32,000 bases of DNA from Schaalia odontolytica. GTDB taxonomy: Bacteria; Actinomycetota; Actinomycetes; Actinomycetales; Actinomycetaceae. The translations under genes and the position numbers were made by a program. Where the stretch lies: positions 1,140,001 to 1,172,000 of the forward strand of contig NZ_CP040006.1 in the NCBI RefSeq assembly GCF_005696695.1. The letters are read 5' to 3'. Under the pieces are notes generated by a model. The model made no database searches. It saw nothing but the letters and a program-made list of their open reading frames with translations, and was not told the DNA's origin. Numbering within the stretch: position 1 is the stretch's first letter; each line of letters begins with the position of its first letter. Shown here in pieces: positions 3,013 to 30,223 of the stretch.

Positions 3013-3971
3013 GGTGTCACATCCAAAAACTTGAGCTTGGTGGCCTTGGCATCTTCGTCGTCATCGGAAGAAGATGACGTGGCGGGGGAGTGGGCACCGG
3101 CGTTGTCACGGCGCTCGAAGCCCTTGCCGTAGTACTTCTCGATGAAGGACTGAATCCACATCAGGAGACTCGTGATGACAAGGTACCAAATCGCAGCCGC
3201 AATCAGAAGCGGCACGGGAGCGAAAGTCGCCTGGCCACGCTGACGCGCAATGAACGTAAGTTCGAGGGTGAAGGGAATCGCCGAGACCAGGGAGGTCGTC
3301 TTCAGCATCGAAATTGTCTCATTTCCGATCGGCGGCACAATCACACGCATTGCCTGAGGAAGGATGATGCGGCGGAAGATCGTTCCACGCGGCATTCCCA
3401 GCGCGGTGGCGGCCTCCCACTGGCCCTTCGAGACACTCAGCAGGCCTGCACGCATAATTTCCGCGAGGTACGCGCCCTCGTTCAGGCCCAAGCCAATGAA
3501 CGCCATCCAGAACGGCGTGAAGTAGGTGGCCGTATCGAACGTCAGCTCCCAGCCCCACAGCGAGCCGAGGAACGGCACACCGAAGGAGAGCTTCGGGTAG
3601 AGCGTGGGCAGCAGCGACCAGAAAATCAACTGCGTGTAGATAGGGGTTCCGCGGAAGAACCAGATGTAGGCCATCGCCACCCAGCGCAGGACCGGATTCA
3701 CGGACTGGCGCATGATCGCCATCGTGATGGCGAGAGCGGTGCCCACCACCATTGCGAGGATCGTCAGGATGATCGTGAAGAGCACGCCCTGCATGATCGA
3801 ACGCGAGAACAGCCACTGGAACACGACTGGCCACTGGAAGTTCGCGTTCGTTACCAGCGCGTGGGCTGCCATTGCCGCAAGGATTGCCGCGACGATTGCG
3901 CTTGCCCACCTCCCCGGGCGGGGGACTGGTTTCGCGTCGATCAGCTCAACGCCGTCTTTGATGGTTGCCAT
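3009..3971 (-). CDS. Polar amino-acid ABC transporter permease (His/Glu/Gln/Arg/opine family) with an acidic Ser/Asp C-terminal tail
   Basis: Multiple hydrophobic spans. EAA-type loop [34 protein letters not shown] lies 5 nt upstream of the ATG. Confidence 0.9.
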
Positions 3972-8323: not shown

Positions 8324-10045
8324 TCAGAGTCCGAGGTCGGACTCGAACGCGCCTTCCTCCAGGCGCTTCTTCACATCCATGAGGAAGCGCGAAGCGTCGG
8401 CACCGTCAACCAGGCGGTGGTCGTAGGACAGCGACAGGTAGACCATCGAGCGAATCGCGATGACGTCGGCGCCGTCGGCACCCTTCATCACGACGGGACG
8501 CTTCACGATCGTGCCAACGCCCATGATCGCGGTCTCCGGCATGTTGAGGACCGGCGTATCGAAGAGCGCGCCGCCCGAACCGGTGTTGGTCACCGTGAAC
8601 GTCGAGCCGGACAGCTCGTCGGGGCCAATCTTCGAGTCGCGAGTACGAGCAGCCAGATCGTTGATCGAGGCGGCGATGCCCGCGATGTCCTTGTCTCCGG
8701 CGTTCTTCATCACCGGGACCAGCAGACCGCGCGGCGTGTCAACGGCGATGCCCACGTGCTCGTAATCGAAGTACGTGACCTCCTTGTCGTTGATCGTCGC
8801 GTTGATCTTCGGGTGGTAGGCGAGGGCCTCGGTCGCGGCCTTCACGAAGAAGGGCAGGAACGTCAGCTTGGTGCCGTGCTTGGCAAGGAACGCGTCCTTC
8901 GAACGCGCGCGCAGAGCGGCAACCTTCGTGACGTCGACCTCGATAACCGTGGTCAGCTGAGCCGCGGTCTGCAGAGACTCGACCATACGGCGGGCGATCG
9001 TCTGACGCAGTCGCGACATCTTTTCGGTCGTGCCACGCAGCGGCGAGGGTTCGCGAACGGCGGCTGCCTGCGCGGCGGGAGCAGCAACGGCAGCGCGGGC
9101 GGCAGCGGCGGCAGCCTCGATGTCCTCGCGGCGCACGCGGCCGCCGACACCCGTGCCCGACACGGACGCCAGATCGACGCCGAGCTCGCGGGCGAGCTTA
9201 CGAACGATCGGGGTGACATACGCGGACCCGGTCACGGCAACAGGGGTTTCAACGACCGGAGCAGCGGAAGCCGTCTGCGCCAGCGTCGAGGCGTTCGGGA
9301 AGGGATCAACCGGAGCTGCCGGAGCTGCCGGAGCTGCCGGAGTTGCCGGGGCAGCGGGCGCTGCGGGAGCAGCTGGGGCAACCGGAGCGGCCGGTGCCGC
9401 GGGGGCGGCCGGAGCGGCCGGGGCAGCTGCCTCGGCGACGGGAGCAGCAGAGGGGGCCGACGACGAAATAATCGCGACGACGGTACCGACCTCGACGGTC
9501 TCGTCCTCGGGAACGCGGATCTCTGCCAGGAAACCGGCCACGGGGGAGGGGACCTCGGAGTCGACCTTGTCCGTGGAGACCTCGAGCAGCGGCTCGTCGG
9601 CGTCAACGGCGTCGCCCACGGACTTCAGCCACGTGGTGACGGTGCCCTCGGTGACGGACTCGCCCAGAGCGGGCATGCGCACCTCAGTACCCTGCGCGGG
9701 AGCGGAGGCAGGGGCGGCAGCGGTCTCAACAGGAGCTGCAGCAGGCGCTGCCGGAGCCTCGACGGGAGCAGCCGCGGGTGCAGCAGCAGGGGCTGCCGAA
9801 GCCTCAGACGCATCGCCAATGCGAGCGATCTCGGTGCCGACCTCGACAGTCTCATCCTCGGGGACCAGGATTTCCAGCAGGACGCCGGCCACGGGGGAAG
9901 GGACCTCGGAGTCGACCTTGTCCGTGGACACCTCAACGATGGGCTCGTCGAGTTCGACGGTGTCGCCGACCTGCTTGAGCCACGTGGTGACGGTGCCCTC
10001 GGTGACGGACTCGCCCAGAGCGGGCATGGTCACTGAAGTTGCCAT
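8324..10045 (-). CDS. sucB: Dihydrolipoamide acyl(succinyl)transferase, E2 component of the 2-oxoacid dehydrogenase complex
   Basis: I moved the start to [18 protein letters not shown], with GGAGA upstream. Two lipoyl domains each carry [14 protein letters not shown]. Other elements are Ala/Pro linkers, a subunit-binding domain ([34 protein letters not shown]) and a catalytic domain with DHRLVDGA. Confidence 0.93.
9310..9345. repeat. Tandem 9-bp repeat (CCGGAGCTG x3 plus one variant) within the Ala-Pro linker coding region of sucB
   Basis: Read directly: ccggagctg ccggagctg ccggagctg ccggagttg. It encodes the (PAA)n/(APA)n linker. The surrounding 9290-9460 region is low-complexity GC-rich. 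Confidence 0.85.
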
Positions 10046-10073
10046 GTGTGTTCTCCTATTAAAAAATTTTCGG

Positions 10074-11447
10074 TCAGTTGTGGACGTGGAGCGGCTTGCC
10101 TGCCAGCGCCATAGCCGCTTCGCCAAGCGACTCGTTCTGGCTGGGGTGTGCGTGGATCAGGGAAGCGACATCCGAGGGGTATGCCTCCCAATTCACCATG
10201 AGCTCGCCCTCACCAATCTGCTCGCCGATGCGCGCGCCGATGCCGTGGAAGCCCACGATCGGACCGCCCTCAACCGAGACCAGCTTGATGATGCCCGATG
10301 TGGCCAGGATAGACGACTTTCCGTTGCCGGCGAGGTTGTACTCGACGGTGCGCACCTGGTCTCCAAACTTTTCGCGTGCCTGCTTCTCGGTCATGCCGAC
10401 GGAGGCAATCTCCGGCTCGCAGAATGTCACGCGCGGGATGTTGATATCAGCCTGCATGGTCGGGTTCAGGCCGGCGATCTCTTCGGCGACGAAGATGCCC
10501 TGCATGAAGCCGCGGTGTGCCAGCTGAAGGCCGGGAACGATGTCGCCGACCGCGTAGATGTTTCCAACGCCGGTGTGCAGGCGGTCGTTGGTGATCACGA
10601 AGCCGCGATCCAGCGTGATGCCGGCCTGCTCGTAGCCCAGGCCCTCGGTGACGGGGCCGCGGCCAACTGCGACCAGAAGGACGTCGGCGTCGAAAGCCTT
10701 GCCGTCTTCGGTCGTGACGTGCACGCCCTGCTCGTTCTGCGTGGCCGAGGCGAAGCGAGTGTTCGTGTGGAACTTGATGCCGCGCTTGCGATAGGCGCGC
10801 TCGAGCTGCTTGGAGATGGCCTCGTCTTCGTTGTTGGCGAGGTGGGGCAGCGCTTCAATGATCGTGACCTCGGCGCCGAAGCTGCGCCACACGGAGGCAA
10901 ACTCCAGGCCGATGACGCCGCCGCCAAGAATCACGGCGGAGGAGGGAACCCAATCCATCTGAAGGGCCTGGTCGGAGGAGATCACGCGGCCGCCGATCTC
11001 GAGGCCGGGGATCGAACGCGAGTAGGAGCCGGTCGCCAGAACGATGTTGCGGCCGGTAATGCGCTGGCCGTTCACCTCGATGGTGTTCGCGTCGGCGAGG
11101 CGGCCCCAGCCGGAGATGACCTCGACGTTGCGAGACTTGAGCAGGCCCTGCAGGCCCTTGTACAGGCCGGAGATGACGGAGTCGCGGTACTTGCCCACCT
11201 GAGCCATATCGATGCCGTTGAAGGTGGAGGAGACGCCGAACTTGGACGACTCGCGCACGGCCTCGGCCGTTTCTGCAGCGTGCAGGTATGCCTTGGTGGG
11301 GATGCAGCCGCGGTGCAGGCAGGTGCCGCCCACCTTGTCACCGTCGATGAGGGCGACCTTCATGCCCAGCTGCGCAGCGCGCAGGGCGGTCGCGTAGCCG
11401 CCGGAACCCGCACCCAGAATGACGATGTCGTAGGTCGATTCGCTCAA
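10074..11447 (-). CDS. lpdA: Dihydrolipoyl dehydrogenase (E3)
   Basis: TTG start with GAGGAG 9 nt upstream. FAD site GAGSGGY, redox disulfide [16 protein letters not shown] site [11 protein letters not shown]-terminal HAHPS motif. Its stop lies 28 nt upstream of the sucB start, which suggests an lpd-sucB operon. Confidence 0.95.
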
Positions 11448-11659
11448 GGTTTAAAACTCCTCGCTGATGAGCCGAAGCTCAGATGGTTGTTTTCATGACG
11501 GGCCTCACGGTCCTTATAGGTCCATTGTCCCACGTTTGCGCAACGCTGTCTTGAAGCTCAGTGTTCCATCGCGGTGCATCAGGCCACACGGCATAGTTGC
11601 TCGCGGCACTCATCTCTCATGCGATGCGCCGCGACAATGCTGTCGGTAGGATCAGACCT

Positions 11660-12241: not shown

Positions 12242-12703
12242 TTAGACGCCGTTCGGGAAACCCAGCTGTCGCCAGGCCTCGTACAGGACGATCGATGCGG
12301 AGTTGGCCAAGTTGAGCGAACGCACCCCGTTAACCATCTGAATGCGCACGCGATCCTCCACACGCGGATGATGCATCGCATCCTCCGACAGGCCGACCGA
12401 CTCGCGCCCAAAGAGGAGGCCGTCTCCATCGGCATAGGAGACGTCGGAGTACATAGTGGTCGCGTGGCCCGTGAGCGCCCAGACGCGCCCTGGAACCTCG
12501 GCGAGTGCCTCATCGAGAGAATCGTGCACCATAACGTGCGCGAGGTCGTGGTAGTCCAGGCCTGCGCGGCGGAGCTTCGCGTCGTCCATGTCGAAGCCCA
12601 GCGGCTTGACCAAGTGCAGCATCGATCCAGTGCACGCGGACAGGCGAATAGCGGCACCCGTATTGCCGGGGATTTCCGGCTCCCAAAAAATAATGTGCAG
12701 CAT
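12242..12703 (-). CDS. trmL: tRNA (cytidine/uridine-2'-O-)-methyltransferase, SpoU/TrmL family
   Basis: MLHIIFWEPEIPGNTGAAIRL..., the C-terminal knot region SLNLANSASIVLYEAWRQLGF, and a size of 153 aa are all typical of TrmL/CspR. Confidence 0.88.
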   Translation of the reverse strand: MLHIIFWEPEIPGNTGAAIRLSACTGSMLHLVKPLGFDMDDAKLRRAGLDYHDLAHVMVHDSLDEALAEVPGRVWALTGHATTMYSDVSYADGDGLLFGRESVGLSEDAMHHPRVEDRVRIQMVNGVRSLNLANSASIVLYEAWRQLGFPNGV

Positions 12704-12708
12704 AATCC

Positions 12709-13236
12709 TCAGGCCTGGTGGGTCACGGTCAGGGAGGCGCGTGCGATCGTGTGCTCGAGCGCCACGAACGAGGCCATGGCTGGGGTCGCGTCGTCGTCGA
12801 GCCCCAGCGAATCCGTATCGAGGGCGTGCACCGTGAATACGTAGCGGTGGGGGCGGTCGCCGGCGGGGGGAGCGGCTCCGAAGTAGGAGGCCTCTCCCGC
12901 ATCGCCGCGCAGATGGAAAGCCGGACCGTCCAGCATGAGGTCGGATGCTCCGGCACCCGCCTCCAGGTGGGTCATGGACGACGGGATGTCAAGAATTGCC
13001 CAGTGCCACCAGCCCGAGGGGATCGGGGCGTCCGGGTCAAAGCAGGTCAGCATGAAGCTCGCCGTGTCCTCGGGGAAACCGTGCCAGGTGAGGTCCGGGG
13101 AAAGGGATCCGGCCTCGGCGGTCGCCGACTCGGGCATAGGCGCGCCGTCGGTGAGAACGCTCGATGACAGCGTAAACATGGGGACTTCCAGGCCCTCGTA
13201 GGGGCTGGGGGCAAGGGGGCGCTGGTCGATGTTCAT
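12709..13236 (-). CDS. YbhB/YbcL-type PEBP (Raf kinase inhibitor-like) family protein
   Basis: I moved the start to MNIDQRPLAPSPYEG. It has the PEBP signatures CFDPDAP..GWWHW and GDRPHRYVFTVHALD. The 113-codon upstream extension in the track crosses the divergent promoter/LexA box and is not credible. Confidence 0.85.
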   Translation of the reverse strand: MNIDQRPLAPSPYEGLEVPMFTLSSSVLTDGAPMPESATAEAGSLSPDLTWHGFPEDTASFMLTCFDPDAPIPSGWWHWAILDIPSSMTHLEAGAGASDLMLDGPAFHLRGDAGEASYFGAAPPAGDRPHRYVFTVHALDTDSLGLDDDATPAMASFVALEHTIARASLTVTHQA

Positions 13237-13330
13237 GCGTGCTCCTTTCTCGGTGTTTCCATTGTGACCTATTCGCGCGCGATCGGCGTTCGGGACGCAG
13301 ATGTATGAGCAGGGTTCTACACTTCCAGTG

Positions 13331-13346
13331 TCGAACACATGTTCTA
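13331..13346 (+). promoter_or_regulatory. LexA (Cheo-type SOS) box TCGAACacatGTTCTA overlapping a TATTGT -10-like hexamer upstream of imuA'
   Basis: It matches the Gram-positive/actinobacterial GAAC-N4-GTTC consensus. It lies 18 nt upstream of the imuA' ATG and is followed by the GGGAGGGGA Shine-Dalgarno sequence. Confidence 0.85.
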
Positions 13347-13363
13347 TTGTTGGGAGGGGAGTT

Positions 13364-13846
13364 ATGACCGATGCGCACGCGCGACTACTGGCGGCGCGCG
13401 ACGTGTTGAACCGTGCCGAACAGGCTGTTGGCCTGCGAGCGCGTGACGATATCGAGCATGCGCAGTCGGGGATTTCTCCTGTCCTTCTGGGGCCGACGGG
13501 CAGGGCTGAACTCATCCGACTACTGCTCGATGTGTGCCCCTCCGAGGGGTGGATCGGCGTGTGCGGAGTGAGCAATATCGGCTGGGAATGGGCCTCGCAG
13601 CAGGGGATGGACCTCGACCGTGTGCTGGTGTTAAACGCGGGGAAAGATCACCAGGTGGGGGACCTGTGTTCCCTTCTGATAGAAGCCTGCGATGTTGTCT
13701 GTCTCGATGTTCCTGAGCTGTCCGGCGCACAGCAGCGGGCCCTGGCGGCTCGGGCCCGATCGATGGGACGCACCATCGTGACACTGCGCCCCTGGCCGGG
13801 GTTCTCTCGCGATGCGGTGCGTCAACGGATGCGGCTGGTGGTCTAA
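13364..13846 (+). CDS. imuA': ImuA'-like SOS mutasome accessory protein (RecA-fold, non-ATPase)
   Basis: It starts at MTDAHARLL after a strong Shine-Dalgarno sequence. The pattern GWIGVCGVSNIGWEWASQQGMDLDRVLVL...CDVVCLDVPELSGAQQRALAARARSMGRTIVTLRPWPG resembles mycobacterial ImuA' (Rv3395c-type). Its position directly upstream of imuB and behind a LexA box supports the call. Confidence 0.75.
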   Translation: MTDAHARLLAARDVLNRAEQAVGLRARDDIEHAQSGISPVLLGPTGRAELIRLLLDVCPSEGWIGVCGVSNIGWEWASQQGMDLDRVLVLNAGKDHQVGDLCSLLIEACDVVCLDVPELSGAQQRALAARARSMGRTIVTLRPWPGFSRDAVRQRMRLVV

Positions 13847-15409
13847 GTGCGTGACATGGTGGTGTGGGTGCCCGATTGGCCCGTCCACTGCCTCGTGGTC
13901 GATCTGCCGCCGGGTGGCGCTGGGGCCGTCGTACATAGTGAACGCATCGAGGTTGCCAGCGGCGCTGCTCGGAGCGCCGGAGTCAGGAGTGACATGAGCG
14001 TACGAGAGGCGACATATGTGTGTCCCGATCTCGTTTGCTTGCCTCGCGACCCTGATCGCGAGGCGCGAGCGTTTAGCGCCGTTGTCGATGCTTTCGATTC
14101 AGTGGCGGCCGGGGTGGAGTGCGTGCGCCCCGGGGTAGCTAGGTGTCGGGCGCGCGGTCCCGCTCGTTGGCATGGGAGTGAGGAGGCCGCGGCCTTGGCT
14201 CTGGTGTCGGCGATCGAGGAGTCCGTCGGCGTTGAATGTTTTGTTGGCATCGCCGATGGTCCAGTCGCATCCCTGGAGGCGGCGCGCGAGGGGCGCATTG
14301 TTCCTGCCGGAGAAAGCCAATCATTTCTGGGGCGCGTCCCGTTACATCGTGCCCTGTGGGCCGTTCCTGTCGCGATGGCTGATAGAGCAGCTGACACCAT
14401 CGAGCTATTGACGGGCCTAGGTGTTCACACGTGCGCGGATTTTCTGGCACTGGGGCGAGGTCGTGTGTGCGAGCGCTTCGGCGACGTCGGTGAACAACTC
14501 TGGAATCTCGCCTCCGGAGGCGACAGCGCCATCACGCTGGCCGGGCGCATTCAACCAGACATCACGATGGAGTGCGTCATTGATGTGGGTGGAGAGTCCA
14601 TCGATACGATGATGGTGCCCATTGGGCGCATCGCACGAGATCTGTCTCAGAGGCTGGGGCGGGGCGGGCTCGTCTCGCAGACCCTGCGCATCGATGTGGA
14701 GGATGCCGGGGGCGGTCAGCGCACTCGCACGTGGAGCGGATGTGACGTGTGCGCATCCGACGACGTTGCGCTGCGTGTCCGGTGGACGCTCGCGGGGTGG
14801 ACTTCGGGTATCGAAGGGCCCAGTGGCGCGGTGACCTGCATACGCGTCACCGCGTGCGATCCGCGGGTGGGGCGCAGTGCATCAGCACTGTGGGGGAGGT
14901 CAGACCGCGAGCGCGATGTCTCGCGTAGCGTCGTGCGCATTCAGGGGATGGCGGGGCCAGATTCTCTCCTGATTCCGCGGGTACAGGGCGGATACGATCC
15001 GCGCAGCCGTGTTGTGATGACCAGGTGGGGGAGTAAGCCTCTCCTTCGCCCGCATGAGGGGGCGTGGGAGGGACGCATCTCTCATCCTCCGGCGACGCTT
15101 TTTGACGAGCCCGTGCGTGTGAGGATTGTTGGCGCATCGGGGGCCTTCGACGACGTGCGTGTGGACCACCGAGGGGCCTTGAGTGCTGCACCCGCCTACC
15201 TCGTGAGCGAGCGTGATGTCTCGCAATCAGTGTCGGGGAGGGGGCGCCGTGCGGCTATCTCGCGGGTGGAAGGGCCTTGGCCAGTGGGAGGTCGGTGGTG
15301 GGCGCAGGAGAGACCGCGCGCCTACATGAGGGCTCTGCTTGAGGACGGACGGGACGTTCTCCTTGTCTGGAAGGAGGGGGAGTGGGCGATCGAGGGACTG
15401 TCCCAGTGA
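13847..15409 (+). CDS. imuB: ImuB, catalytically inactive Y-family polymerase homolog (mutasome adaptor)
   Basis: The GTG start abuts the imuA' stop. The N-terminus VVWVPDWPVHCL is typical of ImuB and lacks the DxD catalytic acidic residues of DinB. A candidate beta-clamp motif ASALWG lies at residues 345-350 (nt about 14879-14896), a position comparable to QLPLWG in M. tuberculosis ImuB. Confidence 0.85.
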   Translation: MRDMVVWVPDWPVHCLVVDLPPGGAGAVVHSERIEVASGAARSAGVRSDMSVREATYVCPDLVCLPRDPDREARAFSAVVDAFDSVAAGVECVRPGVARCRARGPARWHGSEEAAALALVSAIEESVGVECFVGIADGPVASLEAAREGRIVPAGESQSFLGRVPLHRALWAVPVAMADRAADTIELLTGLGVHTCADFLALGRGRVCERFGDVGEQLWNLASGGDSAITLAGRIQPDITMECVIDVGGESIDTMMVPIGRIARDLSQRLGRGGLVSQTLRIDVEDAGGGQRTRTWSGCDVCASDDVALRVRWTLAGWTSGIEGPSGAVTCIRVTACDPRVGRSASALWGRSDRERDVSRSVVRIQGMAGPDSLLIPRVQGGYDPRSRVVMTRWGSKPLLRPHEGAWEGRISHPPATLFDEPVRVRIVGASGAFDDVRVDHRGALSAAPAYLVSERDVSQSVSGRGRRAAISRVEGPWPVGGRWWAQERPRAYMRALLEDGRDVLLVWKEGEWAIEGLSQ

Positions 15410-15448
15410 GCCGGTGCTGGGGATGGGTGGGTGCCGTAGACTGAAAGG

Positions 15449-18400
15449 ATGGTATCTCTGTCGCACACGCTGGCCTCGCTGTCGGATGATGACATGATGG
15501 CCCTCGTTGGCCCGGCGGCGTGGGCGAATGGCCTGCGTTTAGCGCGCAGTGGCGCGGTGCGTGAATTCTCCTGGAGCGAGGATGGGGAGCAGGCTGAAGC
15601 ACGCGTGAAGGAAGCCGGGCTGACCTATCGCGTGCGCGTCGCACAGGGCGCTGTGCGTCCCTCCCTCGCGTGTGCGTGCCCGCTGCGCAGTGATTGTCCC
15701 CATACGGTCGCGACGCTCATTGTTGGGCGCGAGGATGCCCGCGACAAGCAGCGCTCGGTGCCTGAGTGGAGCCGTGTCCTCGAGCAGATGCTGGGTTCTG
15801 ACCGCGACCGCCTGGGCGAGCCGTTGGCCCTCGTCGTCGATGCGCATGATCCCGGGGTTGAGCCGTCTCTCATCCCGCTGCGCCGAAGCTCCTCATCCGG
15901 GTGGACGACGAAGAGGGCTTCGTGGCTCGATTTGACGGCGACGCAGTGGGCGTCAGTGACGGATGGGCTGGATCCCACGCATGTCTCGCTCATGCGCGAG
16001 GGGTACCGCCTGTCGCGTGAATCGCGTTCGTGGCACTCGCGCACGGAGGTGACGCTCAGTTCGCTGGGTGAGCATGCCTACGCGTGGCTGGCACGCCTGG
16101 TACGGGCCGGGGTTGAACTCTACGCCTCGACTGAGGCCGATGAGAAGGTGGTGCTCTCGCACGCAACCTGGGATGCGGACATTGATGTGCGATCCAGTGA
16201 CGACGGCCTTGACGTCAGAGTCGTCGCGCGTAACGGAGACGAGGTGATCACGAGGCCGCGCATCGACCGCGACGCGAGTGTGCTCCTGCTGGATGGAGGG
16301 CGCGGAATCGCGCGGATTGAGGGTGTAGGAACGCTCGACGGCTTTCCTCTCGATCGAGGCCTGCATATTCCTGCCGCAGATGTTGCGCAGTTTCGTGGCA
16401 CGTGGCTGCCCGCCCTCCTCAGGCGTTTTTCGATGGCTTCCTCCGATGGCAGTTTTGACGCTCAGGCTCGCCCGGACGTGTCGCTCGTGGGCACGGTGCG
16501 ACGCGACGGGGAATCTGTCGTTGTGCGTTGGTGGGCCGAGTATCGTCAGGGTGAGTCACGCTCGCGCACTCCTGTGGCCCACTGCGCGGACGACGAGGCC
16601 GTGGCCGAGATCGTGGGGCGCGTCGAGTTGTGGGGACGCGGGTTGGACTCCGCCCTGTGGACCGCGCCTCCGACGACCGGGAGGCTGTCTCCGTGGCGTG
16701 TTCCCGCCTTCTTGGAAGCGGTTGTTGATACTGAGGGCATCGATGGCCTCGTGTGGGACGTTGCGGAGGATGTGCGTGCCATCGACGTGCGAGAAGACGG
16801 ATTCGATGTCGATGTGAGCGTTGATCCGGCCGAACGCGACTGGTTTGACCTCAACGTGCGCCTGCGCCTCGGTGCCGTCACGATCAGCGTGCGCGATGCG
16901 CTCGAAGCGATCGCAGGCGGGCAGGAATACGTCGAGGTCGAGGGAACGTGGGTGCGCCTCGACGGCGAACGTATTCGTTCCTTGGCGACATTGCTGGAAG
17001 AGGCGCGCACCCTGGCGGGGTGGGACGGCGAGGGGTTCAGGCTCACGCCGATGCAAGTCGGCGTCGTCGATCTATTCGCGAGCGCATCCGACCACGTGAG
17101 GATCAGCGATGCGTGGAGGACGCGGGTTGCTCCACTGCGCGACGGCTCCTCGGATGAAGGTCTACCTCCGGTACCATCGCTCAGCTCGGTTCTGCGGCCG
17201 TACCAACGGCACGGCCACGCGTGGTTGACGGCTCGCTTGTCCGGTGGAATCGGTGGAATTTTGGCTGATGACATGGGCCTGGGAAAAACCGTCCAGATCC
17301 TGTCGGCTGTGGCAGCGCTGCGAGCGCATGCACCCGCTGGCGATCCCTCGCCTGTTCTCGTCGTGGCGCCGACCTCCGTCGTCGGCGTGTGGATAGACCA
17401 GGCGCGCACCTTCACACCGCACCTGCGCGTGCGCGCGGTGACCGAAACGGCCACGCGCCGTGGGACGACGATCCAGGAGGAGGTTGCCGATACGGATATC
17501 GTCGTCACCTCCTACACGCTCGCCCGCCTGGAGGCGGAGCAGTGGAACCAGGTGCGCCTCGGCGGAGTTGTCATCGATGAAGCGCAAGCGGTGAAAAACC
17601 CCCGCACTGCAACCTACCGTGCGCTTCGCGATCTTGAGTCGCCCTGGAAGTTGGCGGTGTCGGGTACCCCCATCGAAAACTCACTGGGAGACCTGTGGTC
17701 GTTGCTTTCCTTGACGTGCCCAGGCCTCCTACCCCCGTGGGAAACGTTCCAGCAGCAGGTGCGCAGGCCCATCGAAAACGGCGCGGACCCGGCGATGCTC
17801 GGGCGTCTGACGGCGTACGTCGCGCCCTTTGTTCTGCGGCGCACGAAGGAGGCGGTCGCTCCGGATCTGCCCGATAAGATCGTCGACATTGTGCGCGTCG
17901 ATTTGGGCAAGGAACACCGCCATATCTACGATCAGTACCTGGCCCGCGAGCGCGCCCGGATTCTCGACCTGCTGCGAGACGTGGATGCGAACCGAATGAG
18001 TGTGCTCGCGTCGATTACGAGGCTGCGTCAGCTAGCGCTCGATCCGGCTCTCGTCGAGGAGTCGTATGCGCACGTGGGGTCGGCAAAAATCGAGTACCTG
18101 GCGGATCGGCTGGACGAGATCGTGCCACTCGGGCATCAGGCGCTGGTGTTCAGCCAGTTCACCTCGTTCCTGGAACGTATCCGGCACATGCTTGAGCGCC
18201 GTGGAATATCCGTCGTTCAGCTCGATGGCTCAACGCGTGGTCGCGCTGAGGTCATCGAGAAGTTCCGCTCGGGCGATGCGCAAGTCTTCCTCATCTCGCT
18301 GAAGGCTGGCGGTTCAGGATTGACCCTCACCGAGGCGGACTACGTCTACGTCATGGATCCCTGGTGGAATCCTGCCGCGGAGGAGCAGGCGATTGATCGC

Positions 18401-18580
18401 GCGCACCGCATCGGTCAGACGAAGAAAGTCAATGTCTATCGAATGGTTGCCACTGACACGATCGAGGCGAAGGTCGTGGAACTTCAGGATCGCAAGCGCC
18501 AGCTCATTTCTTCGGTGATGAATGGGACCGGGACGGGCGCTCGCCTGAGCGAGGCGGACCTGCGCGGGCTCCTCGACTAA
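15449..18580 (+). CDS. SWIM zinc-finger / SNF2-family DNA-dependent ATPase (HelZ/RapA-like helicase)
   Basis: SWIM CxCx5CxH (CACPLRSDCPH, nt about 15671-15703). SNF2 motifs ILADDMGLGKTVQ (I), VIDEAQAVKN (II) and SGTPIEN (III). Helicase-C motifs LVFSQFTS, SLKAGGSGLTLT and QAIDRAHRIGQ (VI). GAAAGGA lies 5-6 nt upstream of the ATG, and the gap from the imuB stop is only 39 nt. Confidence 0.92.
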   Translation: MVSLSHTLASLSDDDMMALVGPAAWANGLRLARSGAVREFSWSEDGEQAEARVKEAGLTYRVRVAQGAVRPSLACACPLRSDCPHTVATLIVGREDARDKQRSVPEWSRVLEQMLGSDRDRLGEPLALVVDAHDPGVEPSLIPLRRSSSSGWTTKRASWLDLTATQWASVTDGLDPTHVSLMREGYRLSRESRSWHSRTEVTLSSLGEHAYAWLARLVRAGVELYASTEADEKVVLSHATWDADIDVRSSDDGLDVRVVARNGDEVITRPRIDRDASVLLLDGGRGIARIEGVGTLDGFPLDRGLHIPAADVAQFRGTWLPALLRRFSMASSDGSFDAQARPDVSLVGTVRRDGESVVVRWWAEYRQGESRSRTPVAHCADDEAVAEIVGRVELWGRGLDSALWTAPPTTGRLSPWRVPAFLEAVVDTEGIDGLVWDVAEDVRAIDVREDGFDVDVSVDPAERDWFDLNVRLRLGAVTISVRDALEAIAGGQEYVEVEGTWVRLDGERIRSLATLLEEARTLAGWDGEGFRLTPMQVGVVDLFASASDHVRISDAWRTRVAPLRDGSSDEGLPPVPSLSSVLRPYQRHGHAWLTARLSGGIGGILADDMGLGKTVQILSAVAALRAHAPAGDPSPVLVVAPTSVVGVWIDQARTFTPHLRVRAVTETATRRGTTIQEEVADTDIVVTSYTLARLEAEQWNQVRLGGVVIDEAQAVKNPRTATYRALRDLESPWKLAVSGTPIENSLGDLWSLLSLTCPGLLPPWETFQQQVRRPIENGADPAMLGRLTAYVAPFVLRRTKEAVAPDLPDKIVDIVRVDLGKEHRHIYDQYLARERARILDLLRDVDANRMSVLASITRLRQLALDPALVEESYAHVGSAKIEYLADRLDEIVPLGHQALVFSQFTSFLERIRHMLERRGISVVQLDGSTRGRAEVIEKFRSGDAQVFLISLKAGGSGLTLTEADYVYVMDPWWNPAAEEQAIDRAHRIGQTKKVNVYRMVATDTIEAKVVELQDRKRQLISSVMNGTGTGARLSEADLRGLLD

Positions 18581-19641
18581 AGGGCGGTGATGCCCCTCGG
18601 GCGAACGGCGACCTTCAGGCCAGCGCGTGTGCGCACGGCGTCGAGGGCGTCGCTGACGTCGGACAGCTCATACTCGTGTGTGATGAGCGGTGATAGGTCA
18701 ATGCGTCCGCTCGAGAGCGCATCAACCGCCGCCGCGTAGTCGTCAAGGGTCGCGTTCGCGCTGCCGCTGATGGTCAGCTCCCGGTAGTGCAGGAGGTTGG
18801 GGTCGATCTGAGTCATCGCTCCCGCGGGGAAGCCTGCAAAGAAGGACACGTGGCCGCCGATGCGCGCGCACTGAGCGGCAACGGGGACGAGGTCTGGGGC
18901 TCCGACTGCGATGATGACGACGTCTGCTCCAACGCCGTCAGTCCACGTGAGGACCTCACGCACAAGATCCTCGCCTTGGGCGCTGGTCGTCACCTCGGCT
19001 CCCATTGCTCGCGCGGGTTCGAGGCGTGCCTGCCGTCCGCACGCCATGACGCGTGCGCCGGTAGAAACCGCGAGTGCGCAGTGGATGAGGCCGATCGGGC
19101 CAGTTCCCAGAACGAGTACACGGGAGTTGAATTCGATGGGCAGGCGTGCTGTAGCGCGCAGGCAGCACGAGAGCGGCTCGGCGAGCGCGAGGTGAGGCGG
19201 GGCGATCTCGCGAGCGACGGGGGTGATGCAGGCGAGCGCTTCTTCGGGGACGAGGACGAGGTCGGCGAGGCCTCCATCCACCCCCGTTCCGAATAGGCGC
19301 ATGTTCGCGCACACGTTGGAGCGGCCGCTAGTACAGGGGGCGCAGTGTCCGCAGGCGATCTCCGGAGCGAGTCCGACCTGCGTGCCCGGAGCGGGAACGT
19401 CGACCCCTGCGGTGAGCTCGCTTCCAACGCGCCACACGCGTGCGGCAATTTCGTGCCCGAGGATCACACCCGGGGTGACGCCGTTCGTTTTCTGTCCAGT
19501 CGCAATGCGAAGGTCCGTGCCGCACAGGGTTGTTGCTTCGACGGAGAGGAGAACGTCGCGTGGGCCGAGTGTTGGGATGGGGCGTTCGTCGAGTACCAGG
19601 GCACCGGGGGAGCGAAGCGACGCTGCGAGCATGGATTCCAT
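18577..19641 (-). CDS. Zinc-dependent medium-chain alcohol/polyol dehydrogenase (threonine/sorbitol dehydrogenase-like)
   Basis: CGTDLRI and LGHEIA catalytic-zinc context, structural-zinc cluster CGHCAPCTSGRSNVC, Rossmann motif GTGPIGL. I chose the start MESMLAASL (19641). The track start of 19728 would run into the dnaE2 promoter. Confidence 0.88.
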   Translation of the reverse strand: MESMLAASLRSPGALVLDERPIPTLGPRDVLLSVEATTLCGTDLRIATGQKTNGVTPGVILGHEIAARVWRVGSELTAGVDVPAPGTQVGLAPEIACGHCAPCTSGRSNVCANMRLFGTGVDGGLADLVLVPEEALACITPVAREIAPPHLALAEPLSCCLRATARLPIEFNSRVLVLGTGPIGLIHCALAVSTGARVMACGRQARLEPARAMGAEVTTSAQGEDLVREVLTWTDGVGADVVIIAVGAPDLVPVAAQCARIGGHVSFFAGFPAGAMTQIDPNLLHYRELTISGSANATLDDYAAAVDALSSGRIDLSPLITHEYELSDVSDALDAVRTRAGLKVAVRPRGITAL

Positions 19642-19730
19642 GTTCCCAGCATAGGGCTTGTGTTCCTCGTGGGAGGGGCGCCGTTCGTCCTCACTGTACG
19701 CACCAACGTACATCCCCACCATCACCACTA

Positions 19731-19752
19731 TCGAACATATGTTCTATATAAT
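19731..19752 (+). promoter_or_regulatory. LexA (Cheo-type SOS) box TCGAACatatGTTCTA abutting a TATAAT -10 hexamer; leaderless dnaE2 promoter
   Basis: The box is at 19731-19746 and TATAAT at 19747-19752. The GTG start at 19759 lies 6 nt after the hexamer. Confidence 0.85.
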
Positions 19753-19758
19753 GGCTGT

Positions 19759-22700
19759 GTGACCACGGAACGACGCTACGCAGAACTGCATGCGCACAGC
19801 GCCTTCACCTTCCTGGATGGGACCGACGAGCCCGCGCGTATGGTGGAGGAAGCTGCGCGCCTGGGGCTCGATGCCCTCGCGATTCTCGACGTCGACGGCA
19901 TGTACTCAACCGTTCAGACGACGATGGCAGCCCGCGCGGCCGGCCTGCCGATCGTGTACGGCGCTGAGCTCACGCTCGCACCGGATGCTCTGAGAGGTAT
20001 CGTTCCGGGCACATCTGCACCGGGGTGGGGACTCGCTCCCGGAGCTGAAGATCCGGGGATGCGCCTTCCTATTTTGGCGGCCAGCCCCAACGGTTACGCG
20101 CATCTCGTGGGAGCGATGAGCGATCGAGCACTGTCCGAACCTGGGCAGCGCAATCCACGCCACGACCTCGTCAATCTGAGCGAGGTCGGAGGGGAGCTCG
20201 TCGTCCTCACTGGCGGTAGGCGGGGTCCGCTCATGCGCGCGCTGCGAGCCGGGGGATCGGCGTCCGCACGCCGAGTCCTGGATGGGCTCGTGGACGCGTT
20301 CGGTCGCGACCATGTGCTCGTCGAGTGGCAGGCTGCGCGTGGGGATGAGGACGAGGTCGGAGACGTGCTCGCGGAGCTTGCGCGCGCGAGCGGAACTCAC
20401 CTGGTGGCGACGAGCGGAGCGCGCATGTCCTCACCCTCGAAGCAGGCGCTCGGCGACATTTTGACAGCAACCCGCTTGGGATCGTCCTTGGACGAGGCGG
20501 AGGCTCATCTGGGCGCACACCGCTCTTTCCTGCGTTCGCCCGCGGAGATGGCGCGACTGCACGGATCACACCCGCAGGCACTCGACAACACGTGCGAGGT
20601 CGCAGCCGCGTGCGCTTTCGACCTGCGTCTCGTCGCCCCGCGCCTGCCACGTACCCAGGTCCCCGACGGGCACACCCCGGACAGCTGGCTCGCGCACTGC
20701 ACCTACGAGGGCGCGCGCGTGCGCTATGGATCACGCGCGCACCACCCCCGGGCATGGGAGACGATCGAGCATGAACTGGGGGTCATCGAGCGCCTCGGAT
20801 TTGCGGGCTACTTCCTCATCGTCAAGGAGATCGTCGACTTTTGCGCCCGAAACGGGATCCTCTGCCAGGGCAGGGGGAGCGCAGCCAACTCGGCGGTGTG
20901 CTATTGCCTGGGAATCACAGCGGTGGACGCGGTGCGCCACAACCTGCTGTTCGAGCGATTTTTATCCGATGCGCGCTCGGGACCACCGGATATCGACGTC
21001 GATATCGAGGCGTGTCGTCGAGAAGAGGTCATCCAGTACGTCTACGACACGTTTGGGAGGGATTGCGCGGCCCAGGTCGCGAACGTTATCACGTACCGCC
21101 CGCGCTCAGCGATCCGCGACGTCGCGCGCGCCCTCGGCTACCCCGCTGGTACGGCCACAGCCTGGTCCCAAGGCAGGGGAGAAGTGCCACCCCTCGTTGG
21201 GGATGCGGCCCAGGCGCTTGCGCGCCTACCCCGGCACATGGGGATCCACTCGGGTGGCATGGTGCTCACTGATCAGCCGGTATCGCGCATCTGCCCGGTT
21301 GGGTGGGCCGCGATGCCGGGACGTACGGTTCTCCAGTGGGATAAGGAGGACTGCGCGGATGCCGGCCTCGTGAAGTTCGACCTGCTATCGCTCGGCATGC
21401 TGACAGCGTTGCGCGTCGCCTTCGACGAGCTCCAGGCAGGTGATGTGCGTGCGGGGGAGGCCTCGAATCAGCTGCGCGGCTGGGCGCCTCGAGTAGTGCG
21501 AGGACGCGAGGGCCAGCCCCTAGGCCTGCACACCCTGCCGGAGGAGGATCCGAGGGTCTATGACTTGCTGTGCGCGGCCGACACGGTGGGCGTCTTCCAG
21601 GTGGAGTCGCGCGCGCAGATGAACACGCTTCCTAGGCTCAAACCGCGCTGCTTCTATGACATTGTTGTGGAGGTTGCTCTGATCCGACCGGGGCCGATCC
21701 AGGGGCGCTCAGTTAATCCCTATCTGCGGCGTCGGTCGGGACGCGAGAAGGTCACCTATCTGCACCCACTCCTTGAACCCGCCCTGCGCCAGACGCTCGG
21801 GGTTCCCCTCTTTCAGGAGCAGCTCATGCGCATCGCGACGGACGCGGCGGGCTTGTCGGGGGCGCGCGCCGATCAGCTGCGCCGCGCGATGGGCGCCAAG
21901 CGCAGCCCGGAGCGCATGGAAGCCCTGAAAGGGGACCTCATGGCGGGCATGGAGGAACGAGGGATCGATGCGCCCACGCGCGAGCGTATCTTTGAACAGC
22001 TCAAGGGCTTTGCAGACTTCGGATTCCCGGAGTCTCATTCATTTTCGTTCGCGCACATCGTGTACGCATCCTCCTGGCTGAAAGTGCACGCTCCCGAGCA
22101 CTTTTATGCCGCGATCCTGGCCTCCCAGCCAATGGGCTTCTATTCGCCCGCGACCCTCGTGCAGGACGCCCGCAGGCACGGGGTGCGCGTGGCGGGTCCA
22201 TCGGTCAACGATTCACTCGTCGACGCAAGCGTGCAGCGCGTGGGCGAAAATGAGACGGGGGAGTCCTACAACCCGGGGCGCACGGAGGCTTTGCCCTCGC
22301 GCGGCACCGTTGCCCTCGATGTCGATCGCGAGCTTGCGGTGCGTATCGGGCTCTCTCAGGTACGAGGCCTGGGTGCGGTCGCCGAGCGCATCGTCGAAAC
22401 CAGGCGTCAGGGAGCATTTACGAGTCAGGCAGACCTTGCGCGGCGCGCCCACGTGAGCGCCTCCGCCATGGAAAAGCTCGCGATGGCCGGCGCCCTCGAG
22501 TGTCTGGGGGTCGGGCGGCGTGAGGGTGCATGGGCTGCGGGGGCGCTCGCGCAGCCACAGGGTCGGGGCGGTCAATGGCAGCCGTTTCTTCCGGGAACGG
22601 AGGTGGGGTCCCGCGTACCCGAGCTGCCTTCGTTATCGGAGGTGGAACGCATGCGCTCGGATGTCGCTTCGACGGGGCTGACCCCGGGGCTCCACCCTTT

Positions 22701-28239: not shown

Positions 28240-29094
28240 CTAGCCTAGCCGAGTCCGCAACAGCCACCGTGCATGTTGCTCGGGCAGCGGGGGAGTGGTT
28301 CCGCCGAACACCGGGCAGAGCGCACGCACCCCGCACCAGTTGCACAGGGGATTCTTGCGCGGCGCAAAGGAGTCGTTCTCAATGTCGCGTGCAATCGAGT
28401 CCCAGAGCTGGTCAATGTGACGCTCAAAATTCGCGATGTCACCCGCTTCGGGATCAAAGGTGATGACCTGGCCGGCCTTCAGATAGACGAGCTGCATGCG
28501 AGAGGGCAGCACCTGAGTGCGCGCGAGAAGTAGGGCGTAGAAACGCAGCTGGTACAGGGCCTCGTCGACGTAGCGCGGGCCGGGAGCCTTCCCGGTCTTG
28601 TAGTCCACGACCCGAAGCCGTCCGTCGGGGGCACGGTCCACACGGTCGATGAAACCGAGGAGCCGCACGCCGCCCGAGGTCGTCGTCGTCACGCGCTGCT
28701 CGAGCGCTGCGGGCGCAATCCACTGAGGCTGCTCGATCGCAAAGTACCCATCGATGACCGCACGTGCCTCATCGAGCCACGCGTCACGGTCCGCATCGTC
28801 GCTGAACAACGCGGGAACCTCCGGGTTCTTCGATGCCAAGGCCTCGTATTGGGGTCCTACCTGGCTGCGCGCGGCCTCAGGTGTACGCTGCTGCGCGGGC
28901 AGAGCGAAAAGATGTTCCAGCACCGCGTGCACGATTGTGCCCAGGGCCTTCGCGCGCGTTTCCGGTTCACGGTATCCGTCCAGGACGTGAAGACGGTACT
29001 GCAGGGGGCAGCGCTCGTATTCCTTCGCTCGCGAAGCCGAGAGTGCGGGCTCCCACGTGCGCTCGGCCGCCGAAGGGGTGATCAGGTCTGTCAT
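28240..29094 (-). CDS. PD-(D/E)XK (RecB/Cas4-like) nuclease family protein with a 4-Cys cluster
   Basis: I moved the start to MTDLITPSAAERTW. Nuclease core GFIDRVDR...LRVVDYKTGK, N-terminal Cys (YERCPLQY) and C-terminal CNWCGVRALC. This is the arrangement seen in Fe-S-containing Cas4/AddB-type nucleases. The gene is divergent from trmI, as in mycobacteria (Rv2119/Rv2118c as I recall). Confidence 0.78.
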   Translation of the reverse strand: MTDLITPSAAERTWEPALSASRAKEYERCPLQYRLHVLDGYREPETRAKALGTIVHAVLEHLFALPAQQRTPEAARSQVGPQYEALASKNPEVPALFSDDADRDAWLDEARAVIDGYFAIEQPQWIAPAALEQRVTTTTSGGVRLLGFIDRVDRAPDGRLRVVDYKTGKAPGPRYVDEALYQLRFYALLLARTQVLPSRMQLVYLKAGQVITFDPEAGDIANFERHIDQLWDSIARDIENDSFAPRKNPLCNWCGVRALCPVFGGTTPPLPEQHARWLLRTRLG

Positions 29095-29197
29095 GAATAC
29101 CACGCTAACCCCTCCCGCCCTCATCTGTGTCCTGCCATGGGCGCAGCTGGTGGCAAGCGCTATCCTTTACGTAATGACTATTCAGCGTAATACTTCA

Positions 29198-30223
29198 ATG
29201 TCGGCCAATGATTTTGGCCAGCCCACCCGCCGAGGCGTCCTTTCCGAGGGCGATCGCGTGCAGGTTCGCGACCCCAAGGGACGCTTCCACCAGGTGATTC
29301 TCGTGAGCGGTGGTCGTTTCCAATCCAACCGCGGCGGATTCAACCATAACGACGTCATTGGCCGTCCCGACGGCCAGGTGATTGTCACGGAGGAGGGCCG
29401 CCAGTTCCAGATCCTGCGGCCCCTGCAGGTCGACTATGTGATGTCGATGCCCCGCGGCGCCGCAGTCGTCTATCCCAAGGATGCAGGGGTCATCACCCAC
29501 ATGGGCGATATCTTCCCCGGCGCGACCGTCGTCGAGGCCGGCGCGGGTTCCGGTGCGCTGTCGATGGCTCTCCTTGATGCCGTTGGCCCGCAGGGTCGCC
29601 TTATCTCTGTGGAGCGCCGCCAGGACTTTGCTGACATCGCGGCCGCCAACGTCGACCTGTGGTTTGGCCGCCGCCATCCCGCATGGGACCTGCGCGTCGG
29701 TGACGTCGACGAGGTACTGTGGTCGGCCGAAGAGGGCAGCGTCGACCGGATCGTGCTCGACATGCTTGCTCCCTGGGAGAACATCGAGGCCATCACCCAT
29801 GCACTGATTCCGGGCGGCGTGCTCGTGTGCTACGTCGCGACCGTCACGCAGATGTCACGTCTCGTTGAGGATCTTCGCGCCTCCGAGCGTTTCACAGACC
29901 CGATCGCCTGGGAGGACATGCGCCGCGAGTGGCACCTCGACGGCCTGGCGGTGCGCCCTGAGCATCGCATGGTGGCTCACACCGGTTTCCTCGTGGTCAC
30001 CCGCCTCCTCGCGCCTGGCGTCACGCCGCAGGAACGTGCAACGCGTCCGGCGAAGGCAGCTGAAGGCCAGGGCGGCGCGTGGGACGACGAGCAGGACTGG
30101 TCGCTGGAGAAGGTCGGTCAGCGTGTGAACTCCGAGAAGAAGGTTCGCAAGGTCCGCCGCGACGTCGTCGCGCAGGCCGACACGTGGGCGTCGGAGGGAC
30201 GTGAGGCAGCAGCTGATGAGTGA
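29198..30223 (+). CDS. trmI: tRNA (adenine58-N1)-methyltransferase TrmI
   Basis: I chose the start MSANDFGQPTRRG. N-terminal beta domain (GDRVQVRDPKGRFHQVIL), SAM site VVEAGAGSGALSMAL, and DRIVLDMLAPWE. An alternative start is the ATG at 29174. Confidence 0.88.
   Translation: MSANDFGQPTRRGVLSEGDRVQVRDPKGRFHQVILVSGGRFQSNRGGFNHNDVIGRPDGQVIVTEEGRQFQILRPLQVDYVMSMPRGAAVVYPKDAGVITHMGDIFPGATVVEAGAGSGALSMALLDAVGPQGRLISVERRQDFADIAAANVDLWFGRRHPAWDLRVGDVDEVLWSAEEGSVDRIVLDMLAPWENIEAITHALIPGGVLVCYVATVTQMSRLVEDLRASERFTDPIAWEDMRREWHLDGLAVRPEHRMVAHTGFLVVTRLLAPGVTPQERATRPAKAAEGQGGAWDDEQDWSLEKVGQRVNSEKKVRKVRRDVVAQADTWASEGREAAADE

Follow-up and report, generated by a model that had tools for sequence, protein, structure and literature searches.

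The stretch of DNA analysed here, referred to below as the window, comprises 32,000 nucleotides (nt) of Schaalia odontolytica (assembly GCF_005696695.1, contig NZ_CP040006.1, positions 1,140,001-1,172,000, forward strand), and its closest relatives belong to the oral Schaalia/Pauljensenia odontolytica group, with ImuB identities of 80-98%. The window carries the SOS mutagenesis genes imuA', imuB and dnaE2, and between imuB and dnaE2 lie a gene for a 1043-aa ATPase of the SWIM/SNF2 type (hereafter SNF2) and a Zn-dependent alcohol dehydrogenase gene (adh). A preliminary description of this DNA had proposed that SNF2 is the third gene of a LexA-controlled imuA'-imuB operon and acts as an SOS-co-induced component of the mutasome; the linked dnaE2 gene, located 1.2 kb downstream of SNF2, was absent from that description. 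The features of the locus are collected in Table 1, in window coordinates.

Table 1. Positions of the genes and of the observed and predicted regulatory elements at the imuA'-imuB-SNF2-adh-dnaE2 locus (SD, Shine-Dalgarno sequence; TSS, transcription start site).
Feature	Position	Strand	Basis or remark
PEBP gene	about 12709-13236	-	Pfam/NCBIfam annotation
imuA' promoter, -10-like hexamer TACACT	13318..13323	+	Prediction from sequence; TSS predicted at about 13330
LexA (SOS) box 1, TCGAACACATGTTCTA	13331..13346		GAAC-N4-GTTC pattern; recurs at related loci
imuA' SD, GGGAGGGG	13352-13359	+	Sequence
imuA', 160 aa, start ATG 13364	13364..13846	+	NCBIfam NF058630 below cut-off; position
imuB, 520 aa, GTG start	13847..15409	+	Pfam IMS, 1.6e-12; 76 related loci
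imuB-SNF2 spacer, 39 nt	15410..15448	+	5' part variable; 3' part (GTGCCGTAGACTGAAAGG) almost invariant
SNF2 -10-like hexamer TAGACT	15437..15442	+	Exactly 6 nt 5' of ATG 15449; predicted leaderless promoter
SWIM/SNF2 ATPase, 1043 aa	15449..18580	+	CxCx5CxH at aa 75-85 (nt 15671-15703); ATPase core at aa ~575-1040
adh, Zn-dependent alcohol dehydrogenase	18577..19728	-	Pfam ADH_N and ADH_zinc_N; convergent with SNF2
LexA (SOS) box 2, TCGAACATATGTTCTA	19731..19746		In front of dnaE2
dnaE2 promoter, -10 hexamer TATAAT	19747..19752	+	6 nt 5' of GTG 19759
dnaE2, error-prone Pol III alpha, 1094 aa	19759..23043	+	NF004225; Pfam PHP, DNA_pol3_alpha, finger, HHH_6, OB

The imuA'-imuB and dnaE2 units

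Within the cassette region only two boxes of the LexA type (GAAC-N4-GTTC) were found, one before imuA' and one before dnaE2. The first had already been placed at the imuA' promoter by the preliminary description, and it occupies the same place in nearly all of the related loci that reach that far; a box of this type was also observed 5' of imuA' in Schaalia, Gleimia, Nanchangia, Kribbella and other loci. As judged from the sequence, box 1 would cover the predicted +1 of imuA', and an equivalent of the -10-like hexamer (TAGACT/TACACT) stands directly upstream of the imuA' box in loci L018, L080 and L088. The stop codon of imuA' (13844-13846) adjoins the GTG of imuB, as previously described. The imuA' product matched the model of the Rv3395c ImuA' protein (NF058630) at an E value of 1.3e-14, with a score (54 bits) that falls short of the cut-off (65 bits), and had no match in the Pfam copy used; its positional orthologues carry PF27531 (MT3502_N). 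ImuB contains an ALWG motif, which we take to resemble the mycobacterial QLPLWG clamp motif. The protein has the Y-family fold, with VWVPDWPV at its N-terminus where active DinB/UmuC proteins have the catalytic DxD, and the lack of the catalytic acidic residues is a feature of the ImuB family (PMC6511836).

The identity of dnaE2 is supported by the NCBIfam model of the error-prone polymerase (NF004225), which scored 1235 bits against a cut-off of 939. The start at 19345 given for this gene in the list of open reading frames (ORFs) is an over-extension that overlaps adh. The actual start region consists of LexA box 2, a TATAAT hexamer and, after 6 nt, the GTG at 19759, which is a leaderless layout. 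The box in front of dnaE2 is also present in L018, L080, L084, L085, L088, L089, L090 and L091, and in L018, L080 and L084 the hexamers TATAAT, TACCAT and TATGAT were found in the same register. Each related locus contains exactly two LexA boxes, before imuA' and before dnaE2, and no GAAC-N4-GTTC box was found before SNF2, or before the tdk gene that precedes it in some relatives, in any of the lineages examined. We propose that imuA'-imuB forms one LexA-repressed unit, with its box over the predicted TSS, and that dnaE2 forms a second one, with its box, TATAAT hexamer and leaderless GTG. The 4.3-kb gap between them would hold two genes that are independent of the LexA boxes, SNF2 and the convergent adh.

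The adh gene overlaps the stop codon of SNF2 by 4 bp, and its real start probably lies about 100 nt inside the listed ORF. Orthologues of 345-346 aa are present in L090 (7528-8565) and L091 (5075-6115), and adh is absent in L018, L080, L085 and L088. Since it was found between SNF2 and dnaE2 in two distant lineages, adh may be ancestral to the imuB-dnaE2 gap. The start region of adh faces the dnaE2 box, and a divergent LexA control of adh is conceivable. In our view adh is a passenger between the two units.

A third LexA-like box, TGAACGTAAGTTCG, was noticed at 3251-3264, inside an ABC-transporter permease region. It is probably fortuitous, because matches to the box pattern occur in the window at chance frequency (31 found, 26 expected).

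The imuB-SNF2 junction and the predicted SNF2 promoter

The stop codon of imuB (15409) is separated by 39 nt from the ATG at 15449, which opens the 1043-aa ORF of SNF2. The absence of a hairpin or T-tract in this spacer, on which the operon proposal had relied, was confirmed: no terminator-like site is present in 15410-15448, and the fold z-score of the junction was -1.6 (15385-15470 folded). A consensus scan of the region 12600-20200 detected no terminator near the junctions and no sigma-70 promoter, the scan requiring a -35 element. The GAAAGGA that had been described as the own SD of SNF2 could not be retained in this role. It occupies positions 15443-15449 and is unable to act as an SD because it overlaps the A of the ATG, which leaves no usable spacing.

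The conserved element of the spacer is a different one. The arrangement TA[GA]ACT-N6-ATG is present in 102/102 loci of the S. odontolytica / A. bouchesdurhonensis / S. turicensis group, and the conservation of positions -12 to -1 relative to the SNF2 ATG is 0.99, versus 0.79 for positions -45 to -13. A hexamer TANNNT at -12 to -7 was also identified in five more deeply diverged lineages, in which the spacers (4, 9, 61, 118 and 155 nt) are unalignable. In the same register, the hexamer reads TAAACT in S. turicensis, TAGACT in Actinomyces sp. B33 (L077), TAGAGT in L078, TAGAAT in S. hyovaginalis (L080), TATCCT in L088, where it lies within the 3' end of imuB, and TAAGCT in Flaviflexus equikiangi (L086; genome CP059676), where the gene is unlinked to imuB. 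The base rate of TANNNT in these sequences is 0.0006-0.0045 per position. In-frame indels just 3' of the ATG indicate that this first ATG is the coding start of SNF2; gene callers often pick a downstream start, which gives products of 1026 or 1034 aa.

In Mycobacterium tuberculosis most promoters have a TANNNT -10 element centred 7-12 bp upstream of the TSS and lack a -35 element, and leaderless mRNAs are common (PMC3898074). The SNF2 start region shares with the leaderless actinobacterial genes (Cortes et al. 2013, PMC3898074) the -12 to -7 register, the lack of an SD and the purine start nucleotide; unlike in those genes, its TSS is predicted rather than mapped, and the promoter lies at or inside the 3' end of the upstream gene. 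In every lineage dnaE2 has the hexamer-N6-start arrangement immediately behind its LexA box, which provides a positive control from within the locus for the hexamer of SNF2. Inspection by eye upstream of the SNF2 hexamer revealed no match to the PafBC/RecA-NDp motif (TGTCGG...TANNNT). We conclude that TANNNT-N6-ATG is the sequence signature of an actinobacterial leaderless promoter, here a predicted one.

A leaderless-type -10 element, together with the lack of a usable SD and of a LexA box, implies that membership as third gene in the LexA operon is not the best reading of the primary expression of SNF2. This part of the earlier proposal therefore stands only partially: the open junction after imuB and the conserved gene order speak for it, whereas the predicted -10 element of SNF2, the missing LexA box and the persistence of SNF2 without the cassette speak against it. 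In the mechanism that we favour, SNF2 would be expressed mainly from its own TANNNT promoter as a leaderless mRNA. SOS transcripts probably run into the gene as well, there being no terminator after imuB, and the SOS share of the SNF2 protein is expected to be minor, because on a read-through transcript the ATG would be without a usable SD.

Gene order in Actinomycetaceae and in other Actinomycetota

The initial search with the SNF2 protein of the window returned only relatives of at least 90% identity, and the S. turicensis orthologue and an exhaustive search with the N-terminal half were used instead. Whereas a word-indexed search had suggested that full-length orthologues are limited to Schaalia, the exhaustive HMMER search with the N-terminal half gave 93 representatives at E<=1e-10. 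According to the neighbourhood survey, the location of SNF2 between imuB (with or without an intervening tdk) and dnaE2 is shared by more than one genome: the order imuB-(tdk)-SNF2-(adh)-dnaE2 is found in Schaalia, Gleimia, Nanchangia and further Actinomycetaceae lineages including L088-L091. In the scan of genomes with ImuB, the odontolytica group had imuA'-imuB-SNF2-adh-dnaE2 with adh on the opposite strand, A. bouchesdurhonensis had imuA'-imuB-SNF2-dnaE2, and S. turicensis had imuA'-imuB-SNF2 with dnaE2 not adjacent. With the PEBP gene in divergent orientation upstream, imuA'-imuB-SNF2-dnaE2 was found in S. hyovaginalis, L078, Nanchangia and L088, and imuA'-imuB-tdk-SNF2-(adh)-dnaE2, adh again being reversed, in Gleimia, L089, L090 and L091. 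A metagenome scan, which used a five-sequence alignment of the N-terminal half and returned only oral Schaalia, placed imuB directly upstream of SNF2 in 80/80 Schaalia loci.

The intervening tdk gene is located at 9341-9973 in L083/L084, 9306-9941 in L089, 3462-4076 in L090 and 1202-1816 in L091. A public protein of 849 aa (P0394) carries both IMS and TK domains and represents either an imuB-tdk fusion or a merged gene call. In the tdk-bearing lineages tdk may be SOS-co-transcribed.

SNF2 also exists at loci that lack an intact cassette. In Actinomyces sp. B33 (L077 9421-13852; assembly GCA_028437565.1) the gene lies between SpoU, which points away from it, and a downstream HAD gene, and PEBP, imuA', imuB and dnaE2 are absent within 23 kb; SNF2 nevertheless keeps TAGACT-N6-ATG and every motif. 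No B33 protein was present among the named ImuB homologues; the absence of the cassette is claimed at the level of the locus. In S. turicensis UMB0250 (L025 9881-15921) imuA' has a 350-bp deletion and imuB a 407-bp deletion, and the 3' part of imuB is further interrupted by an insertion of 4.9 kb that encodes a restriction-modification pair of type III (N6_N4_Mtase and ResIII); the mutasome genes of this strain are a pseudogene cluster, and the SNF2 ORF is intact. Locus L082 is less informative, as everything in it is decayed including the 5' end of SNF2. In Flaviflexus and in L087 an SNF2 orthologue is located elsewhere in the genome, unlinked to imuB; a neighbour-joining tree of the SNF2 proteins was too star-like to tell whether the Flaviflexus copy left the cassette or never joined it.

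Outside Actinomycetaceae, the cassettes at the loci from the ImuB genome scan contained no SNF2 gene. For comparison we used 29 non-Actinomycetaceae loci with imuB and dnaE2 among L023-L076 (Kribbella, Aeromicrobium, Acidimicrobiales and others). Where imuB and dnaE2 are separated by at most 346 nt, the intervening sequence contains a LexA box in 0/15 loci; where the gap measures 0.6-6.4 kb, a box lies about 190-230 nt before dnaE2 in 12/14. The largest ORFs were sampled in ten of the split gaps, and the nine that gave Pfam matches contain metabolic genes of an unrelated kind, in part co-directional (glutamate dehydrogenase, PhoD, a major facilitator superfamily transporter, alpha/beta and epoxide hydrolases, and a luciferase-like monooxygenase). 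A search for helicases between imuB and dnaE2 in Kribbella and Acidimicrobiales, where these two genes are 3-6 kb apart, brought up only metabolic genes. The Actinomycetaceae loci follow this pattern: their gap holds tdk, SNF2 and adh in varying combinations and is accompanied by a separate LexA-boxed leaderless dnaE2. The imuB/dnaE2 junction appears to be a recurrent insertion site, and the possession by dnaE2 of its own operator and promoter argues against a simple insertion of SNF2 into a continuing four-gene SOS operon.

The window can be compared with two known arrangements. With the contiguous imuA-imuB-dnaE2 operons of the Caulobacter type (here L023, L024, L027 and others) it shares the three genes, their order and the box upstream of imuA. 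In those operons, however, imuB and dnaE2 are 0-350 nt apart under one shared box, whereas the window is split and has a second box and a leaderless dnaE2 promoter. In mycobacteria, imuA'-imuB (Rv3395c-Rv3394c) and an unlinked dnaE2 (Rv3370c) are both damage-induced. The window resembles this arrangement in that imuA' and imuB form a two-gene unit of directly adjoining ORFs behind a LexA box, dnaE2 stands apart from them (here with its own LexA box), and the Y-family protein ImuB is catalytically dead (PMC10421592, PMC8682763). It differs in that no more than 4.3 kb separates the two units, a co-directional SWIM/SNF2 gene and adh (and tdk in sister lineages) occupy the gap, and inspection by eye found no PafBC-type TGTCGG motif near the SNF2 start.

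The SNF2 protein and the explanations for its position

The preliminary description had reported intact helicase motifs, and we identified GLGKT (motif I), DEAQ (II), SGTPIEN (III) and QAIDRAHRIGQ (VI), all invariant in 17 sequences. The C-terminal half is a canonical SNF2 motor, as supported by Pfam (SNF2-rel_dom, 2e-61; Helicase_C, 7e-23) and by a match to PDB 1z63 at 9e-77. In the N-terminal half, in which 11 orthologues are 25-44% identical to the window protein, the SWIM-like CxCx5CxH residues C75, C77, C83 and H85 are invariant; Pfam SWIM (PF04434) remained below threshold for the window protein and is recorded for distant homologues. An AlphaFold2 model had a mean predicted local distance difference test (pLDDT) value of 78, with about 85-93 in the core, a confident SWIM region and 45-70 in aa 100-340. 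Foldseek searches with this model returned essentially SNF2 cores, Mot1, ISWI, INO80, CSB/Rad26 and ZorD, and assigned no function to the N-terminal half. Judged by its family, the protein should be a double-strand DNA translocase that displaces or repositions DNA-bound proteins; in our model it would be an ATP-driven translocase or remodeller with an N-terminal SWIM zinc finger.

The same architecture, with an N-terminal CxCxnCxH finger, a weak DUF3670 match in the middle and a C-terminal SNF2 ATPase, is found in the bacterial SWIM, DUF3670 and SNF2 helicases, such as SCO1167/SCO6262, the pneumococcal pilus-regulating Snf2 and the proteins described by PDLC02851, a sub-model of the PADLOC DpdE set. 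NCBIfam matches are restricted to the C-terminal half and far under the cut-offs: 395 versus 1200 bits for SCO1167/SCO6262, 384 versus 1100 for the pilus-regulating Snf2, 211 versus 1500 for ZorD, 65 versus 950 for DrmD, 51 versus 500 for DpdE and 21 versus 576 for RapA. Unlike those families, the window protein has full-length relatives of its N-terminal half mainly in Actinomycetaceae, and it has no dpd context. We know of no role in translesion synthesis for SCO1167/SCO6262, the pilus-regulating Snf2 or the DpdE sub-model family.

The last ~10 residues of SNF2 form a tail, [AD]DLxxLL[DE], that is conserved in the orthologues (ADLRGLLD, ADLAELLD, SDLVDLLDN). This tail could be a short linear interaction motif.

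We prefer to read the locus as an SOS mutagenesis cassette split in two, with a SWIM/SNF2 gene in the gap that is autonomous, leaderless and free of a LexA box, and we give this reading a probability of roughly 55%. It predicts a TSS at 15449 and LexA independence of SNF2. Several observations weigh against it. The SNF2 promoter on which it depends is itself predicted, and in Nanchangia anserum SNF2 has a well-spaced SD (GGAAAGGA-5 nt-ATG) and lacks the hexamer. The tdk-bearing lineages have SD-like sites and short leaders before SNF2, which begins 14-59 nt after tdk. Elsewhere imuB and SNF2 lie very close together, with spacers of 4 nt (L088), 9 nt (S. turicensis) and 32 nt (Nanchangia), and since no terminator separates the two genes either, imuB and SNF2 are likely to be co-transcribed to some degree. 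In addition, SNF2 is the one gap gene present in every sampled cassette-bearing Actinomycetaceae locus, with N-terminal identity down to 27-30%, and it is always co-directional with the cassette. The pairing of imuB with SNF2 is thus an old one with a wide distribution in Actinomycetaceae, and no other point favours the preliminary description as strongly. It is important to mention, however, that the upstream neighbours sucB, lpdA, SpoU and PEBP are equally syntenic; conservation of position alone cannot separate selection from inertia, and the adjacency is weak evidence for a link, although compatible with one.

A functional link between SNF2 and the mutasome, in whatever form, seems to us doubtful, although it deserves consideration. 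In its original form, SNF2 would be the third gene of the LexA-controlled imuA'-imuB transcript and an SOS-co-induced accessory remodeller of the mutasome, which clears RNA polymerase, RecA or nucleoid proteins or opens the clamp for DnaE2. The open junction after imuB with spacers of 4-39 nt, the SD-led Nanchangia gene without its own -10 element and the constant position of imuB in the metagenomic Schaalia loci agree with this proposal, as does the order kept in at least four genus-level lineages between which the N-terminal half of SNF2 is merely 27-33% identical; the resemblance of the core to Mot1, CSB and Rad26, which displace proteins from DNA, would suit the proposed activity. We nevertheless consider it unlikely. 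In the window and most lineages SNF2 has the conserved leaderless-type -10 element and no usable SD, and a LexA box is missing before SNF2 while dnaE2 has its own. Loci whose imuA', imuB and dnaE2 are missing or in decay still keep the gene, and its unlinked Flaviflexus orthologue shares the promoter layout. In split cassettes elsewhere the passengers are unrelated genes, and the mycobacterial mutasome is defined, and works, without SNF2 (PMC10421592).

A broader version is a four-part Actinomycetaceae module, in which SNF2 would have been fixed between imuB and dnaE2 since the family ancestor as an accessory remodeller that removes RNA polymerase, RecA filaments or nucleoid proteins from the path of DnaE2, and SOS read-through would raise its level, most clearly in Nanchangia and the tdk-bearing lineages. 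This we likewise hold to be improbable.

SNF2 might also be linked to the mutasome in function without belonging to the operon: expressed constitutively, it would serve damage tolerance at mutasome substrates, and selection would favour its co-inheritance or co-localised expression with the cassette. Such a scenario would account for the fact that SNF2 was never lost from cassette-bearing Actinomycetaceae loci while tdk and adh come and go, and both the constant co-directionality and an own promoter are compatible with it. But a housekeeping gene in a syntenic block would be expected to be equally persistent, as SpoU and PEBP are equally stable; SNF2 also persists after cassette loss, and the literature searched offers no support, so that this explanation appears to us quite unlikely.

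Assignment of SNF2 to DpdE, ZorD, DrmD or RapA was rejected, the scores being under the cut-offs and partner genes lacking in the window. An anti-phage defence helicase of the DpdE/ZorD/DrmD type is accordingly very improbable: PDLC02851 does match over the full length (558 bits, E 9e-168) and ZorD is the second-ranked structural match (1057 columns aligned), but the DpdE, ZorD and DrmD scores fall far short as given above, the window ORFs scanned with Pfam contain no dpd-, zor- or drm-partner domains, and the gene belongs to a conserved chromosomal backbone across genera rather than to a variable island. It seems likely that PDLC02851 captures SWIM/SNF2 helicases in general, and Dpd components may be over-called by it.

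Should SNF2 truly act together with the mutasome, SOS mutagenesis in bacteria would for the first time be connected with a motor of the chromatin-remodeller type, and there would be a lead on how DnaE2 reaches blocked forks. The statement that described mutasome cassettes contain no SNF2 component agrees with the literature searched, in which nothing connects SNF2 with imuAB. Nor is the embedded gene order described there, and the evidence so far marks it as an arrangement, not as a new system: in Actinomycetaceae, a split and doubly LexA-boxed cassette whose gap would have trapped an autonomous SWIM/SNF2 gene, tdk and adh. The locus also shows that tight co-directional adjacency in high-GC Actinobacteria can be misleading, as leaderless promoters may hide in very short spacers.

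The wider backbone has the order glutamine-type ABC transporter, DUF4191, kinase, sucB, lpdA, SpoU, PEBP, the cassette, HAD and MarR, followed further on by PD-(D/E)XK, TrmI and Mpa/ARC. An 822-aa ORF at 9030-11498 (+) with a weak collagen-repeat match is an antisense artefact over sucB (8324-10126, -) and lpdA (10074-11447, -). Such antisense ORF artefacts are typical of high-GC DNA. The genes for a PD-(D/E)XK nuclease, the tRNA methyltransferase TrmI and the proteasomal ATPase Mpa/ARC are located at 28240-31760, a region that we take to be the Pup-proteasome neighbourhood, comparable to Rv2115c-Rv2119 in M. tuberculosis.

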